Shown piece after piece: positions 10,743 through 18,278 of a stretch of DNA of 64,000 bases. Every line of letters starts with the position of its first letter. Position 1 is the first letter of the stretch. Both the position numbers and the translations under genes were made by a program. The notes beneath the pieces are model-generated. The model was not told the origin of the DNA and searched no databases. It worked only from the letters and a program-made list of their open reading frames with translations. Origin of the DNA: Acidobacteriota bacterium (lineage in GTDB: Bacteria; Actinomycetota; Acidimicrobiia; Spongiisociales; UBA5794); contig JADFQA010000011.1 of the NCBI GenBank assembly GCA_022562055.1, positions 11,273 to 75,272 of the forward strand. The letters are read 5' to 3'.

Positions 10743-11507
10743 CTAGTAGGTGCGGATGATGTGGAGGGTCTGCGCGGCCACGTCGTCGCTGGTGCGGAGT
10801 TTGCCTTCGCTGGGCTCCATACGGTGCACCGCAATCCGGCAGAAATCCCCGGCGAGCCCCTTGATGACGTGCGGCGAATCCTTGGGTCCGAAGGTCCACA
10901 GCGCATACTTGGGTCCCATGATCTCGACGCGTATCCCGGCTTGCGGGAACTCCACTCCGGCTTGTTCGTACGCCCACGGCAACATGCGGTGTGCTAGCCA
11001 GGCCACGTGCCGGATGCGTGGAGTGTCGGCCCTCGGGTCTTCCTCGTCCTCTTCGACGAAGATCTTGTCGTCCATCGTGAACTTGATGTCGAGACCATGC
11101 GCCCAGGTCTCAGCAAGCCGCAAAGTCGCGAATGTTTTAGCGTTGACCGCTGCCACCAGCCACGGAATGCGGACGCTCGCATCCATGCGCGAAAGCGGTC
11201 CGACGACGCCAGCGCGACCGTTTCGCCACCATTCGATGATCTCCTGGTACCGCCGGTTCCTACCTCTTTCGACTCCCTCCTGGGTCCATTCGTCATACGG
11301 TACCTGGAGGATTTTGTCGACGACCGCTTTACCGCTTTCGATTACCTGTGCTGCGAACTCCTCGGTGGCAGCCAAGTGGCTGACGGTATCGAGGATCGTC
11401 CATCCTTCACAGGGGGTCTGCCGTTTCCAGTCGCGCTCTTTCACGCCCTGGAGAAATTGGTCGAGCGCTTGCTGTTCGGCGACTAGATCTGAAAGTATTT
11501 CCCGCAT
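10743..11507 (-). CDS. DinB/mycothiol-dependent maleylpyruvate isomerase N-terminal-domain family protein (TIGR03083/03084-like)
   Basis: 254 aa; WTILDTVSHLAATEEF motif typical of this actinobacterial family. Confidence 0.55.
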   Translation of the reverse strand: MREILSDLVAEQQALDQFLQGVKERDWKRQTPCEGWTILDTVSHLAATEEFAAQVIESGKAVVDKILQVPYDEWTQEGVERGRNRRYQEIIEWWRNGRAGVVGPLSRMDASVRIPWLVAAVNAKTFATLRLAETWAHGLDIKFTMDDKIFVEEDEEDPRADTPRIRHVAWLAHRMLPWAYEQAGVEFPQAGIRVEIMGPKYALWTFGPKDSPHVIKGLAGDFCRIAVHRMEPSEGKLRTSDDVAAQTLHIIRTY

Positions 11508-12730: not shown

Positions 12731-13216
12731 CTAGTCCCGAAAGTTCACGTATTGCAGCGGGAGCCGAAAGTTGAGGTCCTTAAGGAGCGCGATGACGTTC
12801 TGGAGGTCGTCACGTTTCTTGCCCTGGACGCGAAGCTGATCGCCCTGCACCTGGACCTGCACCTTCAGCTTGGAGTCGCGGATCGCCTTCCCGAGCTCTT
12901 TTGCGGCTTCCTGCGGAATGCCGTCATTGAGCGTGAACGCCGTGCGTACACGGCCCCCGGAAGCCGCCTCGACGTTCCCCTGTGTAATAGCTTTGGTCGA
13001 TATGCCGCGCTTGATGAGGCGCCCCTTCAACACGTCGATCGCGGCTTCCAGGCGCCCATCGGCGCTCGATTCGATCGTGATCGACTCGTCCGTGAGGTCG
13101 ATGGCAGTGTCGGTGCCCTTGAAGTCGTAGCGATTGGTGATTTCACGCATTGCTTGGTCAACCGCGTTGCGGAGTTCTTGTTTGTCGGTCTTTGAGACCA
13201 CGTCGAAAGCTGGCAT
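12731..13216 (-). CDS. yajQ: YajQ-family nucleotide/c-di-GMP-binding protein (UPF0234)
   Basis: Start at internal ATG (MPAFDVVSKTDKQELRNAVDQA...), typical YajQ N-terminus and ~160 aa length. Confidence 0.8.
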   Translation of the reverse strand: MPAFDVVSKTDKQELRNAVDQAMREITNRYDFKGTDTAIDLTDESITIESSADGRLEAAIDVLKGRLIKRGISTKAITQGNVEAASGGRVRTAFTLNDGIPQEAAKELGKAIRDSKLKVQVQVQGDQLRVQGKKRDDLQNVIALLKDLNFRLPLQYVNFRD

Positions 13217-13258
13217 AGGAATCAGCCTATCACCGACATCGCCCGCCATCTCGGACAT

Positions 13259-14248
13259 TCAAGAGAACGCTGGACCTTTGGGCCCGACACGGACGATTGC
13301 CGCCCACACGGTGTCGTAGTGATCTCGGTCAAACGGGTCGATGTGGGGAAGAATGAAGTCTTCCCACGCAGCACGCAGAGGGTCAGCCCGATGGTTGTGC
13401 ATGTGCAGGCCGGCGGGAAAGCGGTCAAGTACGCTGCGCAGCGACATCGGCGTTTCGACGCGGGTACGGGCGTCCGTTGAGGTGAATGATGTGTTTACTT
13501 CCACTGCGAGGCGGGCGATCAATGAGATGAACTCGCTGCCGAGGTTTGCGTGGCGTCGCTTCATCATCTTCGTCAACTCATCCTCTTTAGGGAAGTCCTT
13601 TTCCCATACGATCCACCGGTCGGCGAACGCCTTGTTTAGTGTCTGAGTGCCCGCGTAGTCGCGCAAATCGGTCGGATTTAGGGTTCCAAACACTCGAACA
13701 TCGGCGCGTAGCTTCACCATCTCGCCTGTGGGTAGCTCCAGCGCCTGGTGCCGATCCAAAAGACCGTGCAAGGCGAACAGCGTCTCAGCCCCTGCGGCGT
13801 TCAGCTCGGACAGGTTGATTAGCGCTGGGCCACGGAGCGCTCGGGTGATGTCTCCATCCTCCCATCGACTTTCGGTGCCACCTTTGCCGTCGCCGTACAG
13901 CTTCACGGACCCTATCAACGTAATGTCGCGCACCTCACCGGTGAGCGGAATGCGATAGTGCGGCATCCGAAGAATCGCCGCAAACTGCTCCAAGTCGTGG
14001 TCCTTGCCCGTCCCCATGTGGCCTCGTAGGGCAAGGTGGAGGGGTGTGTCCGCAAACGGTCCGCGCCGCACCGCCTCGAGCGCCGCGAGTTTGTACAACA
14101 TGCCGAGGTCCACATAGAACGGGTCGGGGGTTGGGATGTGCCCCATGCGACGCTCGTAGTCGGGCAACGATGGGTCGACCACCACGGTTTCGAGTTCGAT
14201 ATCGGGCTCAGCGCCGGTCGGGTGTTTAAACGTGACGACGTCCGTCAT
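13259..14248 (-). CDS. AAA_5 (MoxR/CobS/NorQ-like) ATPase with degenerate Walker A and B motifs
   Basis: 329 aa from ATG 14248 (ATGA overlap with upstream gene); Walker A GHMGTGKD (Asp where Ser/Thr expected), Walker B position ALINLSELNAA (Ser for Asp of DEIN), NPTD...ADRW C-terminal AAA_5 blocks. Confidence 0.65.
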   Translation of the reverse strand: MTDVVTFKHPTGAEPDIELETVVVDPSLPDYERRMGHIPTPDPFYVDLGMLYKLAALEAVRRGPFADTPLHLALRGHMGTGKDHDLEQFAAILRMPHYRIPLTGEVRDITLIGSVKLYGDGKGGTESRWEDGDITRALRGPALINLSELNAAGAETLFALHGLLDRHQALELPTGEMVKLRADVRVFGTLNPTDLRDYAGTQTLNKAFADRWIVWEKDFPKEDELTKMMKRRHANLGSEFISLIARLAVEVNTSFTSTDARTRVETPMSLRSVLDRFPAGLHMHNHRADPLRAAWEDFILPHIDPFDRDHYDTVWAAIVRVGPKGPAFS

Positions 14249-16494
14249 GCCGTGTTCCTCTTGTTCGAGGCGTAGTTGATTACTGGTGTGATTGACCACT
14301 TTCGAGATACCCCGAGGTGGTTCAGTGTTGTGTGAAGGGTGGAGCGGACGCCGTTGATTATTGCGGCAGTGAGCTCAGTCGGTTTTTCTACGACTTCATG
14401 ACGCCCATAGGCCGCCTCGACGGTGTTGTCGCCGATCCCTATCCCGAGCACCGTCGTTCCGTTGTGCTCCGTCATCGCTACCGTCTCCGCAAGCGCCTGG
14501 ACCGAGCCGCGAGTCATGCCGTCGGCGAGGACGACCAGAATCCGAGTTGACGTTCGGCGTCCTGCGAGTCGCTGTGCGGCAAACGCCACGTTGAACTCGT
14601 CAACGTTTGCTGCTTTGTCGAACATAGAGATCGGAGGTGCTGCTGCTCTGTCGAGGCGCGCCTGCTGCGCAGCTGCCGAGGGGGCAGAAGCCATCCAGAA
14701 CAATCCCGCAACCGTGTCCTTCGCAGTTCTCCATCGTTGATCGAACGACTTGAGCAGATAGTGGTTCACAGTGCGGGTGAGACGATCGGCGTTGCTGCCG
14801 TAACTCCGTTTGAGTCCACCGGTCGCGGCGTGCCGCCGGTCTGAGAATGTCGCTTCAGAGTCATCAGGCATTGCAGCAAACGCTCGGTTGAATATTGCGA
14901 CCTCGAACTCGATCTGGAGTTCGTCGCAGAGTTCCGCAAGCGACCATGCTCCCAACGTGGCCGCAGCAAGGGCCCACGGTGCTTGTGCCAGCGGCGAGTT
15001 TCGACTTGGCTGGAGCATGCTGGCCGAGCCGTCAATGAGCAGGCTGACGGCGTATGAGCGTCTTGTTGGACGGTCTCGTCTCTCGAACATCCGTTGGTAC
15101 AGCCCCGCACCCAACAACAAAGCCGCGTACGGTGAGAGGTCTCCCGCGTCGTACCCGGAGCGCAGACCACGGCGTTGGTTGGCAAGGAACAGCGGATACA
15201 GCTCACCCGACATCCGCCGCTGGGCGACACCCCACTGTTGCGCGGCTTGCGCAAGCTTGATGTGACCTTCGGCTGCAAATGCTGTGAATCGGTGTGGAAA
15301 CTCCGTCATAACTAGCTTGCCACTTTGGCCGGTTGGGAGATAAACCGACGGGGCCTCGGAGACACGTACGAGCTGGTCGCTTGCCGGGTCGCCGGCCTGA
15401 TCTGACGCGCCCTTGCGGCCGTCTTTGGCACTCACCGTCTGCGCTTGGCGTGTCTCCTCATACGACTCCATTGAGGCGAGCGGCGGCGTCACGATTCTGA
15501 CGGCATCTACGGTGTCAGAGATCGCGTTGACGTCGACCTCCTCTTTGAGCTTTCGGGTCGTGATCGAATCGCTGCGGCCATCTTCCTGCACAAGCCGATG
15601 GAGTTTCGCGACCTGGAGGATCTGGAGCGCAATCCCACCAACTGCCCATGGGTCCTGTGCGCCACGAACCTCGTCCAGAAAGGGCTGCGCGTCATCGAGA
15701 GCTGCCGCGACATGGGGAGCAGCCCGGCGGGCAACCTCGTCCCTGGTTAGGTAACCACCGACTATGAGGAAACATCCGAGGGCGTATTGGCCAAGTGGGC
15801 GGGCGTTTGCCAGCGCTTCTGGGGCAGCAGATCGGTAAAGGTCTCGTAACACGGATCGTGCGCCTTCGAAGGCGTCGAAGAATTGGAACTCCTGCCGAGC
15901 ATCTTCGAGCGAGAGGAACAACGCTTCGCCAACCATGCCGGCCGCCTCATGCAGTGCGTCGACGAGCGAGACCTCCACGACTTTCTGAGTGAGTGACACA
16001 TCACCTGGTGTGGGCGCGATGTCGGTGTCGAGGACGTCGGCGACTAAAGCGCCGATCTCGACGTCTTCGTCTTCGAAATCGAAAAGCGCAATGTTAAGCT
16101 GGAGTTCTTCTTCGTCCTCGTCATAGAGATGTTCGGCCACGGTCGGGCTGTCGGGCGTGATCCACGATTCCGGGATCGGGCGTTTCTCCTCGAAGTTGGT
16201 GGCGATCAGATGAACGACTTCATGTAGGGCCGAGGTGAGAGCAACCTCTGTCGGGGTCACCGGCGCGTGGCGGGCGTAGGCGGCTTGGAACACGGCCGGG
16301 TCTAGAACGATCTCGTCGGGACCGCCCGAAGATAGGGAGCCGAGGCGAACTTGGAGGTCCGGGTTGCCTGACAACGAGCGCGCAAAACGCGTGACGGCCG
16401 GTGCCACACGCTGGTAGCGGGCCACAACAGCTTCGATAGCCCGTTCTTCGATTGGCAGGATTTCGGCAAGTACCGACGTTGTCCGATCGCGCAT
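14245..16494 (-). CDS. VWA-domain protein (CobT/NorD/CbbO-like C-terminal VWA) with N-terminal HExxH-containing region
   Basis: 749 aa from ATG 16494; MIDAS LLIDGSASM ... VVLADG ... IGIGDN; N-terminal LHEVVHLIATNFE (HExxH). Confidence 0.65.
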   Translation of the reverse strand: MRDRTTSVLAEILPIEERAIEAVVARYQRVAPAVTRFARSLSGNPDLQVRLGSLSSGGPDEIVLDPAVFQAAYARHAPVTPTEVALTSALHEVVHLIATNFEEKRPIPESWITPDSPTVAEHLYDEDEEELQLNIALFDFEDEDVEIGALVADVLDTDIAPTPGDVSLTQKVVEVSLVDALHEAAGMVGEALFLSLEDARQEFQFFDAFEGARSVLRDLYRSAAPEALANARPLGQYALGCFLIVGGYLTRDEVARRAAPHVAAALDDAQPFLDEVRGAQDPWAVGGIALQILQVAKLHRLVQEDGRSDSITTRKLKEEVDVNAISDTVDAVRIVTPPLASMESYEETRQAQTVSAKDGRKGASDQAGDPASDQLVRVSEAPSVYLPTGQSGKLVMTEFPHRFTAFAAEGHIKLAQAAQQWGVAQRRMSGELYPLFLANQRRGLRSGYDAGDLSPYAALLLGAGLYQRMFERRDRPTRRSYAVSLLIDGSASMLQPSRNSPLAQAPWALAAATLGAWSLAELCDELQIEFEVAIFNRAFAAMPDDSEATFSDRRHAATGGLKRSYGSNADRLTRTVNHYLLKSFDQRWRTAKDTVAGLFWMASAPSAAAQQARLDRAAAPPISMFDKAANVDEFNVAFAAQRLAGRRTSTRILVVLADGMTRGSVQALAETVAMTEHNGTTVLGIGIGDNTVEAAYGRHEVVEKPTELTAAIINGVRSTLHTTLNHLGVSRKWSITPVINYASNKRNTA

Positions 16495-16558
16495 AAGAAT
16501 GCATTGTCTCACATGCGTCAAATCTTCCGATTCCGGCGTTGAGGCCTACGATTGGCTC

Positions 16559-16990
16559 ATGGAGCCCTTGGTGATCGATGCCAAACACGAAATCCCGGGC
16601 GCTGAGTTGATTGAGAGTTTCTCGACGTCAGGCGGGCCCGGTGGGCAGCACGCAAACCGCTCATCGACACGGGTGACCCTCACATTCGACCTTGGCGAAT
16701 CGGAAGTGTTTGACGATCTACTAAAGGGACGATTGCGGCGCAACCTTGGTCATCGTCTAACGAAGGGGGTGCTCGTTGTCGCGGTCGACGACAGCAGATC
16801 CCAGTGGCGTAACCGACAGCTTGCTCGAAGCCGGATGCGAGTTCTCTTGGTTGCTGCACTGCGCACGCAGAAGGTTCGGCGACCCACGCGCCCCACCCGA
16901 GCCGCACAACGCCAACGCGTCGACGAAAAAAAGGCGCGTGGTGAGACGAAACGTCTGCGGTCCAGGCCTCGGCACGACGACCCGCAGTAG
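16559..16990 (+). CDS. arfB: alternative ribosome-rescue factor ArfB (peptidyl-tRNA hydrolase, GGQ family)
   Basis: MEPLVIDAKHEIPGAELIESFSTSGGPGGQHANRSSTRVTL + basic C-terminal tail. Confidence 0.85.
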   Translation: MEPLVIDAKHEIPGAELIESFSTSGGPGGQHANRSSTRVTLTFDLGESEVFDDLLKGRLRRNLGHRLTKGVLVVAVDDSRSQWRNRQLARSRMRVLLVAALRTQKVRRPTRPTRAAQRQRVDEKKARGETKRLRSRPRHDDPQ

Positions 16991-17027
16991 AGGTTTTTCA
17001 GACTCCGGGCGCTCCTATCATGGCCGG

Positions 17028-18278
17028 ATGCACTACTCGTTGACCACCCTTGACAACGGTCTGCGCGTCATCACCCAGGCAATGGCGTCGGCCCGGTCCA
17101 CATCGATTGGCGTCTGGGTTGACGCCGGGAGTCGAGACGAGGTAGGTGCCGAGCATGGTGCGAGCCATTTCCTTGAGCATCTGCTCTTCAAGGGGTCTGA
17201 GCGCATGTCGGCTCGCCACATCAGCGAAGCGCTCGATGCGGTCGGTGCCCAGCACAACGCTTTCACATCCAAGGAATACACTTGTTACTGGACCCGTGTC
17301 CGGTCGGCCGACACGCCGCTTGCTGTTGACATCTTGTCGGAAATGATCCAGTTCCCTGCGTTCCGTCCATCCGAAATCGACTCAGAACGTCATGTTGTGC
17401 TCGAAGAAATCAACATGAACGATGACGATCCGAGTGACGTTGCGCACGAGCAGTTTGTCAACGCAATGTGGGTCGACCACCCAATCAAACCCCCAATCCT
17501 CGGTACCCGCAAGTCCATAACGGCAATGACTCGCGACACCATTCACGATTATTGGGCGCATCGTTACACACCTCACTCGGTGGTGGTATCGGCGGCCGGA
17601 CGGCTGGACCACGACGACTTTGTGGCGCTCATCGAGAAGCACTTCGGAAAGTGGCAGGGTGATGCGCCATCACGCGAGTTGCGGACCCTTAAGTATCGGT
17701 CAGGAGTTGAGGTGGTCCGCCGCGACACCGAGCAGGCACACCTCGTCCTTGGTATGCCGGGGTACGTTCGTGATGACGAGCGCCGGTACCCACATCTTGT
17801 TGTCGACCATGTGCTCGGTGGCGGCATGTCGTCTCGTCTGTTCGAGGAGATCCGCGAGCAACGTGGCCTGGCGTACTCGGTCCACAGCTTTCGTATGCCG
17901 TTTGTGGATACAGGTGCCTCGGCTATCTACGTCGGGACCACACCGTCGCAGGCGCCCGATGTCCTCAAGCTGATTCGCGCCGAACTCGCAAAGATCGTCG
18001 AGAGCGGCATCACCACCGCTGAGATGGAGCGTGCCAAGGGCAATGTGAAGGGGAGTCTTGCGCTCTCAATGGAGGACGTAACTTCGACCATGACCCGAAT
18101 AGGCAGGTCAGAACTCATCGGAATTGAACATTCGAGCATCGACGAGGTCGTTGCTCGCGTCGAGGCAGTCACCCCAGCCGAGATCGCCGAAGTGGCTTCC
18201 GATGTCTACGCCGGGCCGTTTGTCCTCGGCGCGGTTGGTCCGTTTGACGCATCTGATCTCGAAGAATTCGTGTCGTGA
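17028..18278 (+). CDS. M16 family zinc peptidase (PepR-like)
   Basis: Start at ATG 17028 (MHYSLTTLDNGLRV); inverted zinc motif HFLEHLLFKGSE (HxxEH); ~417 aa. Confidence 0.85.
   Translation: MHYSLTTLDNGLRVITQAMASARSTSIGVWVDAGSRDEVGAEHGASHFLEHLLFKGSERMSARHISEALDAVGAQHNAFTSKEYTCYWTRVRSADTPLAVDILSEMIQFPAFRPSEIDSERHVVLEEINMNDDDPSDVAHEQFVNAMWVDHPIKPPILGTRKSITAMTRDTIHDYWAHRYTPHSVVVSAAGRLDHDDFVALIEKHFGKWQGDAPSRELRTLKYRSGVEVVRRDTEQAHLVLGMPGYVRDDERRYPHLVVDHVLGGGMSSRLFEEIREQRGLAYSVHSFRMPFVDTGASAIYVGTTPSQAPDVLKLIRAELAKIVESGITTAEMERAKGNVKGSLALSMEDVTSTMTRIGRSELIGIEHSSIDEVVARVEAVTPAEIAEVASDVYAGPFVLGAVGPFDASDLEEFVS

Follow-up and report, generated by a model that had tools for sequence, protein, structure and literature searches.

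The AAA+ gene and its two altered motifs

We analysed a stretch of DNA of 64,000 nucleotides (hereafter, the window), which corresponds to positions 11,273 to 75,272 of the forward strand of contig JADFQA010000011.1 (assembly GCA_022562055.1). The window contains an AAA+ gene of the AAA_5 type, preceded directly by a gene for a CobT-like partner with a VWA domain. The AAA+ protein (accession MCH7668602.1) departs from the consensus at two positions of its nucleotide-binding site, namely the Ser/Thr of Walker A and the Asp of Walker B. The features concerned are listed below, with positions counted from the first letter of the window.

13259..14248, minus strand: AAA+ gene (AAA_5, CobS-like), 329 amino acids; from the open reading frame (ORF) and its translation, Pfam, PHROG, AlphaFold2 (AF2) and Foldseek
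14256..14260, minus strand: Shine-Dalgarno-like GAGGA, 7 nucleotides 5' of the AAA+ ATG; read from the sequence
14000..14023, minus strand: Walker A (P-loop) GHMGTGKD, G76-D83; from homology alignments and the sequence read
13805..13822, minus strand: Walker B LINLSE, L143-E148; from homology alignments and the sequence read
14245..16494, minus strand: CobT-like partner gene, 749 amino acids; the start is the ATG of the identical deposited protein, and the ORF reaches a TTG at 16521

The AAA+ gene starts with the ATG at 14248. In the window, this codon shares the sequence ATGA (14245-14248) with the TGA stop of the partner gene, and the AAA+ gene is translationally coupled to this partner. Close homologues of the AAA+ protein had a length of 328-331 amino acids and a common start position, from which it follows that the gene boundaries given in an earlier note on this DNA were correct. 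The protein has an N-terminal domain (approximately residues 1-70), followed by the AAA core and a lid bearing additional C-terminal helices. It matched the whole Pfam profile AAA_5 (PF07728; E = 1.1e-11, 45.3 bits versus a cut-off of 22), as well as the PHROG family phrog_249 (phage CobS-like, "porphyrin biosynthesis"; 2e-25).

Compared with the Walker A consensus GxxGxGK[ST], the glycines and the Lys (Lys82) are present, but the position following the Lys (hereafter, K+1) is occupied by Asp83 (GAC, 14000-14002). Compared with the Walker B consensus hhhhDE (h, hydrophobic), Ser147 (TCC, 13808-13810) replaces the Asp, and the catalytic Glu148 is kept. The register of both motifs was established by three homology alignments. 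Using phmmer, LRGHMGTGKD aligned on the midasin sequences LEGSPGVGKT and LIGKAGSGKT, and ALINLSELN on WIVLDELN. In the phmmer alignment with CobS, the N-terminal fragment GHMGTGKDHDLEQFAA was paired with GYHGTGKSTHIEQVAA of CobS, and GHMGTGKD with GYHGTGKS. Finally, a MAFFT alignment with 25 canonical relatives placed both motifs in the same columns. Since the three alignments were concordant, Asp83 occupies the Walker A K+1 position and Ser147 that of the Walker B Asp; the two substitutions that the earlier note had reported are therefore real and lie in the true motif positions. As read from the sequence, the changes are reciprocal (Thr/Ser to Asp at K+1, Asp to Ser in Walker B), so that the usual pair of residues appears inverted and not lost.

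Other unusual residues were observed around these motifs. Asn145 (13814-13816, minus strand), two residues before the altered Walker B position, was invariant in the family, whereas the aligned phage relatives nearly all had a hydrophobic residue. His84 and Asp85 (13994-13999, minus strand), directly after Walker A, are invariant polar residues specific to the family.

Conservation of the altered motifs

Relatives belonging to the family were found in 408 stretches by a scan of one genome per species; 80 of these 408 loci were fetched for labels and synteny, and codons were counted on 81 genomic copies. Moreover, a cluster search was performed in a library of 1.84 billion proteins at 50% identity, of which the 150 best cluster representatives were checked. 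The motif GHMGTGKD was present in 120 of the 120 best database homologues (74-98% identity) and xxNLSELNAA in 119 of them, the last one most likely having the Met variant NMSELN, which was seen in the cluster representative P0126. Both changes were present in every cluster representative or family fragment spanning the motifs. The earlier note had proposed aligning orthologues; these share the K-D / S-E signature, and the alignments put Asp83 and Ser147 on the canonical positions.

In the 81 genomic copies, Asp83 was encoded by GAC (63 copies) or GAT (18 copies), and all six Ser codons were used for Ser147: TCC (40 copies), TCG (26), TCT (7), TCA (6), AGC (1) and AGT (1). The median proportion of synonymous differences (pS) was 0.69, meaning that synonymous sites are saturated, and the ratio of non-synonymous to synonymous substitution rates (dN/dS) was about 0.1 or less, a sign of strong purifying selection. 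Across 122 sequences, 142 of the 329 positions were invariant, and the invariant stretches corresponded to the P-loop, the helix-2 insert, Walker B with the helix that follows, and the segment from sensor 1 to the Arg finger.

These results bear on the trivial explanation that the unusual motifs are an artefact. A sequencing or assembly error was ruled out, as the signature was identical in independent NCBI, ENA, JGI and Logan assemblies and in the 80 genome loci. A decaying pseudogene was likewise ruled out by the intact frame, the low dN/dS and the synonymous variation at both positions. With nothing found in its favour and all 120 homologues, the codon variation and dN/dS refuting it, an artefact of either kind is practically inconceivable. 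The statement in the earlier note that the protein does not result from random decay thus holds.

Relatives outside the family

In the 50%-identity library, the family was made up of one full-length representative (71% identity) and fragments. The next full-length single-domain relatives were at most 40% identical and had GK[TS] together with DE, or with EE in one sub-clade. The latter variant, known as one of the rare ones, was observed in P0174, P0272, P0273 and P0275, which belong to a phage-type sister sub-clade and combine a canonical GK[ST] with Glu in place of the Walker B Asp (LLEE[LM]N). An outgroup profile retrieved 23 rare metagenomic proteins, which were all canonical. Similarly, the 48 relatives found in IMG/VR all had GKT, and the signature HMGTGKDHD was found on no viral contig searched.

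Among midasin-like relatives (500 P-loops from 119 proteins), 97% of the P-loops had Ser/Thr at K+1 and none had Asp. A midasin-like protein from the search of cluster representatives, P0160, contained four AAA_5 repeats, each with GERGTGKN and a canonical LDE Walker B, i.e. a torsin-like Asn at K+1. We also looked for single-substitution intermediates (GKD with DE, or GKT with SE): GKD was absent from the 150 representatives, the 48 viral relatives and the 500 midasin-like P-loops, and two GKT/S-E pairs in the midasin-like set were caught by a loose regular expression and left uninspected. As no GKD protein occurred outside the family in the sets searched, there was no clear single-substitution intermediate.

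Two contigs carrying phage-type sister genes were inspected. The first (L081) encoded YopX and lambda Ea47 domains, with a gene of 613 amino acids without domain match after the AAA_5 gene. The second (L083) had a weak holin match and many small ORFs, and a VWA gene followed the AAA_5 gene. Judging from this gene content, both contigs look like phage.

Remaining catalytic residues and fold of the AAA+ protein

In CobS, the motifs have been assigned to G71-S78 (Walker A), D141-E142 (Walker B), N186 (sensor 1), R210 (Arg finger) and R271 (sensor 2) (10.64898/2026.07.21.739949). The remaining motifs of the AAA+ protein, as well as its helix-2 insert, were located as follows.

13676..13678, minus strand: sensor-1 Asn191 (TLNPTD); aligns with CobS N186, invariant in the family and the phage sisters
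13616..13618, minus strand: Arg finger Arg211 (ADRW); aligns with MDRW of CobS (R210), invariant in the family and the sisters
13436..13438, minus strand: sensor-2 Arg271 (MSLR); aligns with S-x-R of the sisters, invariant in the family
13856..13912, minus strand: beta-hairpin of the helix-2 insert, residues 113-131, GSVKLYGDGKGGTESRWED; from AF2 strands 113-119 and 125-131, conservation and alignment

The P-loop glycines, Lys82, the catalytic Glu148, sensor 1, the Arg finger and sensor 2 were all invariant across the family, and five of the seven catalytic positions of the protein are kept invariant. In a 35-sequence alignment including the phage sisters, Lys82, Glu148, Asn191 and Arg211 were again invariant. 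Arg271 would be the equivalent of CobS R271, the phmmer alignment with CobS ending 4 residues short of it. The earlier note had described the AAA_5 scaffold as intact on the basis of its NPTD and ADRW blocks; these blocks are indeed present, but they are the sensor-1 (Asn191) and Arg-finger (Arg211) motifs and not mere scaffold.

This pattern weighs on the possibility that the protein is a nucleotide-free structural element, in which the Asp83 carboxylate fills or repels the phosphate/Mg site and the fold only serves as a ring scaffold. Phosphates could in principle be repelled by an acidic P-loop residue, and the canonical Mg ligand is lost, as the earlier note had argued. However, the charge added at K+1 is offset by the removal of the Walker B carboxylate, and over at least 120 sequences, at saturated synonymous divergence, G-x-x-G-x-G-K stayed invariant together with Glu148, Asn191, Arg211 and Arg271. 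We thus consider a nucleotide-free scaffold very improbable.

The structure predicted by AF2 from the family and 23 phage sisters (the 35-sequence alignment) reached a predicted local distance difference test (pLDDT) score of 90.6 and a predicted template modelling (pTM) score of 0.89. A prediction from a family-only alignment (33 sequences, 74-85% identical) gave a pLDDT of 67, with values below 50 in the AAA core, and was discarded. The retained model contained the hairpin of the helix-2 insert and a pre-sensor-1 hairpin (strands 169-171/177-179). In a Foldseek search, its best PDB matches were NorQ and CbbQ, with template modelling (TM) scores of 0.83-0.86 normalised to the target. The helix-2 insert was nearly invariant, and its tip (DGKGGTES) was 4 residues longer than in phage relatives. 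By analogy with NorQ and CobS, this insert would be a pore-lining element (PMC13036017; 10.64898/2026.07.21.739949).

The CobT-like VWA partner

The partner is 100% identical to a deposited "hypothetical protein" of 749 amino acids and is annotated as hypothetical everywhere. In each of the 80 loci, its gene lay directly upstream of that for the AAA+ protein, so that a VWA protein carrying a MIDAS motif (for metal ion-dependent adhesion site) is adjacent in all of them, as in MoxR-class AAA+/VWA pairs. From the N- to the C-terminus of the partner, an N-domain is followed by an acidic linker of low conservation, a conserved pre-VWA segment and the VWA/MIDAS domain; the following features were distinguished.

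16210..16224, minus strand: HExxH of the N-domain (HEVVH; H91, E92, H95), invariant
16057..16122, minus strand: acidic, poorly conserved linker, DEDEEELQLNIALFDFEDEDVE; from conservation and the sequence read
15058..15207, minus strand: near-invariant pre-VWA segment, residues 430-479, GELYPLFLANQRRGLRSGYDAGDLSP...; from conservation
15019..15033, minus strand: MIDAS DxSxS of the VWA domain (DGSAS, D488-S492), invariant
14509..14526, minus strand: ADGMTR with the distal MIDAS Asp, conserved (ADGMT invariant)

Homology of the partner to CobT was deduced from its PHROG matches, which were phrog_5298 ("cobalamin biosynthesis protein"; residues 17-77, 1.2e-11), phrog_17276 (CobT; C-terminus, 7.5e-7) and phrog_1576. 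The Pfam matches to CobT_C (4e-4) and VWA (8e-3) were each under their cut-off, and the N-terminal 303 amino acids matched no Pfam family. Searches of the PDB yielded no significant sequence match, either with the single sequence or with a profile; the best profile matches were the VWA domain of CobT (E = 0.19) and the MIDAS domain of midasin (E = 0.68). The partner is without a P-loop.

The pre-VWA segment was among the longest invariant runs in the partner. In CobT, Q373-R413 precedes the MIDAS residue D422 (10.64898/2026.07.21.739949), and the segment of the partner would match, by its position, the "shaft" of CobT and the "finger" of NorD, which enter the AAA+ pore. Both this segment (15058-15207) and the tip of the helix-2 insert are near-invariant, and they may form a co-evolved pore/finger interface. 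Since CobT_N has been described as peptidase-M48C-like (10.64898/2026.07.21.739949), the HExxH of the partner could be a live zincin metal site. A conserved E-D-A-R-Q-E block lies about 100 residues after HExxH.

Genomic neighbourhood and distribution

The genes flanking the pair belong to the core chromosome and comprise ArfB-like, M16 peptidase, dapB, dapA, RNase J, ftsK, cinA and RNase Y genes. There was no other AAA+ gene in the operon or the window, no CobN-sized ORF and no cob gene in the 64-kb window, and no nor, cbb or cox genes nearby. The only neighbour strictly linked to the AAA+ gene was the VWA partner, and the gene context gave no hint of a client.

Two other roles or origins were considered and rejected. 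An anti-phage defence function, as a vWA-MoxR conflict system, was rejected because PADLOC returned no match for the AAA+ protein or its partner and the housekeeping region around the pair (dapB-dapA-rnj-ftsK-cinA) is conserved. That the locus derives from a prophage or phage was rejected because the signature was on no viral contig searched and the flanking genes were syntenic across genomes.

Other genes close to the pair were less regular. In the window, a DUF520/YajQ gene (12731-13258, minus strand) begins right after the stop of the AAA+ gene (TGAATG) and may be co-transcribed with it. Such a gene was adjacent to the AAA+ gene in 62 of the 80 loci, with variable strand and distance. On the other side, an RF-1-domain (ArfB-like) ORF (16499-16990, plus strand) is divergent from the partner gene, and its start overlaps the longest ORF of the partner. 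It is itself overlapped by the ambiguous long upstream extension of an M16 peptidase ORF (16776-18278, plus strand).

Nearly all of the 80 fetched loci were labelled Acidimicrobiia, Acidimicrobiaceae or Actinomycetota, and the AAA+/partner pair belongs to the core of the class Acidimicrobiia and is inherited vertically. The proteins of the window (MCH7668602.1, IIC71_05275) were deposited under an "Acidobacteria bacterium" metagenome-assembled genome, in which a mycothiol-type DinB gene is present. Since nearly all close relatives and the conserved synteny point to Acidimicrobiia (Actinomycetota), as does the mycothiol-type DinB, this bin is probably mislabelled.

A rewired Mg-ATP site as the best-supported reading

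The Walker A Ser/Thr and the Walker B Asp are textbook invariants. In P-loop NTPases, Mg2+ ligand #4 is the hydroxyl of the K+1 Ser/Thr, which also forms a hydrogen bond with the Walker B Asp (PMC9599734). In a survey of more than 3,100 catalytic sites, these two residues were the only strictly conserved ones capable of forming a proton relay, and the natural exceptions named were a Walker B Glu and, in nucleotide monophosphate kinases, a Gly at K+1 (PMC9599734). Because the two positions are hydrogen-bonded neighbours in canonical enzymes, the swap observed here would keep one carboxylate, one hydroxyl and the same net charge by the metal. From general P-loop geometry, Asp83 and Ser147 are expected to be in contact. 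In the literature searched, we found no description of a P-loop with a GKD Walker A or of a reciprocal Walker A / Walker B swap.

The best-supported reading, which we hold with about even confidence, is that of a functional, rewired Mg-ATP site that has retained hydrolysis. It is favoured by the invariance of the P-loop glycines and of Lys82, Glu148, Asn191, Arg211 and Arg271; by the lack of a separate active motor in the operon; and by the example of the torsins, an AAA+ family with a K+1 residue other than Ser/Thr (GKN; PMC5628414). The AAA+ gene would encode the motor subunit of a two-gene, CobS/CobT-like remodelling machine, made up of a MoxR-class AAA+ protein and a VWA-MIDAS adaptor. Asp83 would bind Mg2+ directly and Ser147 would be hydrogen-bonded to Asp83. 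The hexamer would still bind Mg-ATP and would probably hydrolyse ATP, perhaps slowly or only when the partner is engaged, by means of the retained Lys82, Glu148, Asn191, Arg211 and Arg271. In NorQD and CobST, the helix-2 inserts grip a VWA-proximal finger or shaft in the pore, which is rotated on ATP turnover (PMC13036017; 10.64898/2026.07.21.739949). By analogy, ATP turnover may rotate or pull the pre-VWA segment of the partner, which the helix-2 inserts would grip in the pore, and the MIDAS site and the HExxH N-domain of the partner would engage a putative client.

Several points weigh against this reading. In the enzymes tested, replacing the K+1 Ser/Thr or the Walker B Asp abolishes activity, and mutants with Asn for the Walker B Asp bind nucleoside triphosphates (NTPs) yet hardly hydrolyse them (PMC9599734). 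Hydrolysis could be very slow, because a Mg-bound Asp would accept protons poorly in the relay model (PMC9599734). ATP binding alone, for ring assembly, could explain the conserved Lys, sensor and Arg-finger residues. Moreover, Asn145, His84 and Asp85 indicate that, at the sequence level, the pocket is remodelled beyond a clean two-residue swap. That the family is a fully active AAA+ ATPase, with the Walker A Ser/Thr and the Walker B Asp exchanged, is proposed here as tentative.

The main rival is a nucleotide-binding pseudo-ATPase. Its ring would bind ATP, whether Mg is present or not, for the sake of structure or assembly and without turnover, and would act as a static scaffold or an ATP-gated switch for the VWA partner. 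Both altered residues are described as essential for activated hydrolysis, with the Walker B Asp-to-Asn change keeping NTP binding and losing catalysis (PMC9599734), and Walker B mutants of NorQ retain ATP binding and exchange as well as ring formation (PMC13036017). Invariant Lys82, Arg211 and Arg271 would also be expected if these residues only served binding and contacts between subunits, and an Asp that binds Mg should accept protons poorly. However, Glu148 and Asn191, whose main role concerns the attacking water, are also invariant in this family. The chemical reciprocity of the changes is not what a simple loss of function would predict, and no active AAA+ partner is encoded nearby. Known non-hydrolysing AAA+ sites have typically lost the catalytic Glu, sensor 1 or the Arg finger. 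In the present family, instead of lost hydrolysis residues and a relaxed remainder, only the pair formed by K+1 and the Walker B Asp is altered, and dN/dS is about 0.1 or less. We therefore regard a pseudo-ATPase of this kind as rather unlikely. The account in the earlier note is thus only partly supported: its proposal of a probable pseudo-ATPase, i.e. a catalytically dead regulatory subunit, found no support but was not refuted either, given the reciprocal changes, the invariance of the other site residues and the fact that neither the operon nor the window contains a canonical AAA+ paralogue for it to regulate. If the site had ceased to handle nucleotide, these residues would hardly all have been kept.

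A rewired site may also have changed its cofactor or its chemistry, with the K+1 carboxylate shifting the metal preference (e.g. to Mn2+, Fe2+ or Co2+) or the nucleotide preference; in a more speculative variant, Asp83 itself would accept the gamma-phosphate. According to general coordination chemistry, ligand-field and affinity properties change when a carboxylate takes the place of a hydroxyl that binds a metal directly. The relatives CobS, NorQ and ChlI belong to machines that insert metals, and the additional invariant polar residues His84, Asp85 and Asn145 surround the site. However, this possibility is pure inference, with no precedent found in the literature searched, and appears improbable. 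A changed metal or nucleotide preference and the nucleotide-free scaffold discussed above are thus both less likely than a rewired Mg-ATP site with retained hydrolysis.

If the dyad works in its reversed arrangement, it bears on the catalytic mechanism of the whole P-loop superfamily; otherwise, the family would represent a new and precise route from an AAA+ motor to an ATP-bound switch. If fully active, it would allow the proposed Ser/Thr-Asp proton-relay mechanism to be tested in a natural setting, within a CobST-like machine that is core to a globally abundant class. The gene pair is a class-wide, syntenic and unannotated module of the Acidimicrobiia, deposited only as an "AAA family ATPase" and a "hypothetical protein", and points to a putative housekeeping client of a chelatase-like remodelling machine.

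Comparison with known systems

We compared the pair with the CobS-CobT system, using the structures 9UJV, 9UDK and others (preprint 10.64898/2026.07.21.739949). The N-terminal extension and the AAA_5 core could be aligned with CobS over residues 25 to 263; the "DRW" Arg-finger motif was identical, and the H2-insert and pre-sensor-1 hairpins of CobS, as well as its extra lid helices, were found in the AAA+ model. The partner resembles CobT in its N-domain, in the acidic linker, which is disordered, in the conserved stretch that precedes the VWA and in the MIDAS. The two systems differ in that Ser78 and Asp141 of CobS are replaced by Asp and Ser, respectively, in the AAA+ protein, and in that the gene order in the window is partner then motor; the invariant HExxH in the N-domain of the partner is a further difference from CobT. 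Since PHROG links the AAA+ protein to phage CobS-like proteins and the partner to phage CobT-like proteins, the pair is described as CobS/CobT-like. It is probably not a cobaltochelatase in the strict sense, because the AAA+ protein scored only 49.5 bits on the TIGR01650 equivalog (cut-off of 558.55) and the window contained no CobN-sized or cob gene.

The nearest sequence relatives were phage CobS/CobT-like pairs (phrog_249 / phrog_5298 / phrog_17276; P0143, P0223, P0267 and P0271-P0290), sharing 20-32% identity with the family when aligned in full and at most 40% where only matched stretches are counted. They share with the family an N-terminal P-x-P, the motifs LNAA..E.LFALHGLLD and NP..YAGT..LN.AF.DR[FW], and the S-x-R of sensor 2. 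On the two inspected contigs, the AAA_5 gene was accompanied by a large gene, with a VWA domain in L083 and without domain match in L081 (613 amino acids). Unlike the window family, these relatives have canonical GK[TS] and [DE]E motifs, and the AAA gene precedes the large (VWA) gene. Moreover, they are rare singletons on phage-like contigs, whereas the window family is chromosomal, syntenic and class-wide.

The best structural matches came from the MoxR-class systems NorQ-NorD (NorQ, 9QH4/9QH9) and CbbQ-CbbO (CbbQ, 6L1Q/5C3C), which are chaperones for metal insertion and Rubisco activation. These systems follow a common logic, in which an AAA+ hexamer works with a VWA-MIDAS partner whose finger is inserted in the pore (PMC13036017). 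NorQ and CbbQ differ from the AAA+ protein by their canonical Walker motifs and share only 20-26% sequence identity with it. In addition, NorQ is without the N-terminal domain found in the AAA+ protein, in which no CbbQ_C domain was detected.

Torsins are a natural AAA+ family in which the K+1 residue is replaced by Asn (Walker A GxxxxGKN; PMC5628414). They differ from the present family in having a canonical Walker B DE with no reciprocal change, in having no Arg finger, in belonging to another AAA+ clade and in being located in the eukaryotic endoplasmic reticulum.

In Mg-chelatase, a degenerate, non-hydrolysing AAA+ module fused to a VWA domain (ChlD/BchD) acts with a separate canonical motor (ChlI/BchI). 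This degenerate module of a chelatase-type AAA+/VWA system provided the context for the earlier proposal of a dead subunit; in the pair described here, however, the variant protein is the only AAA+ protein of the operon.

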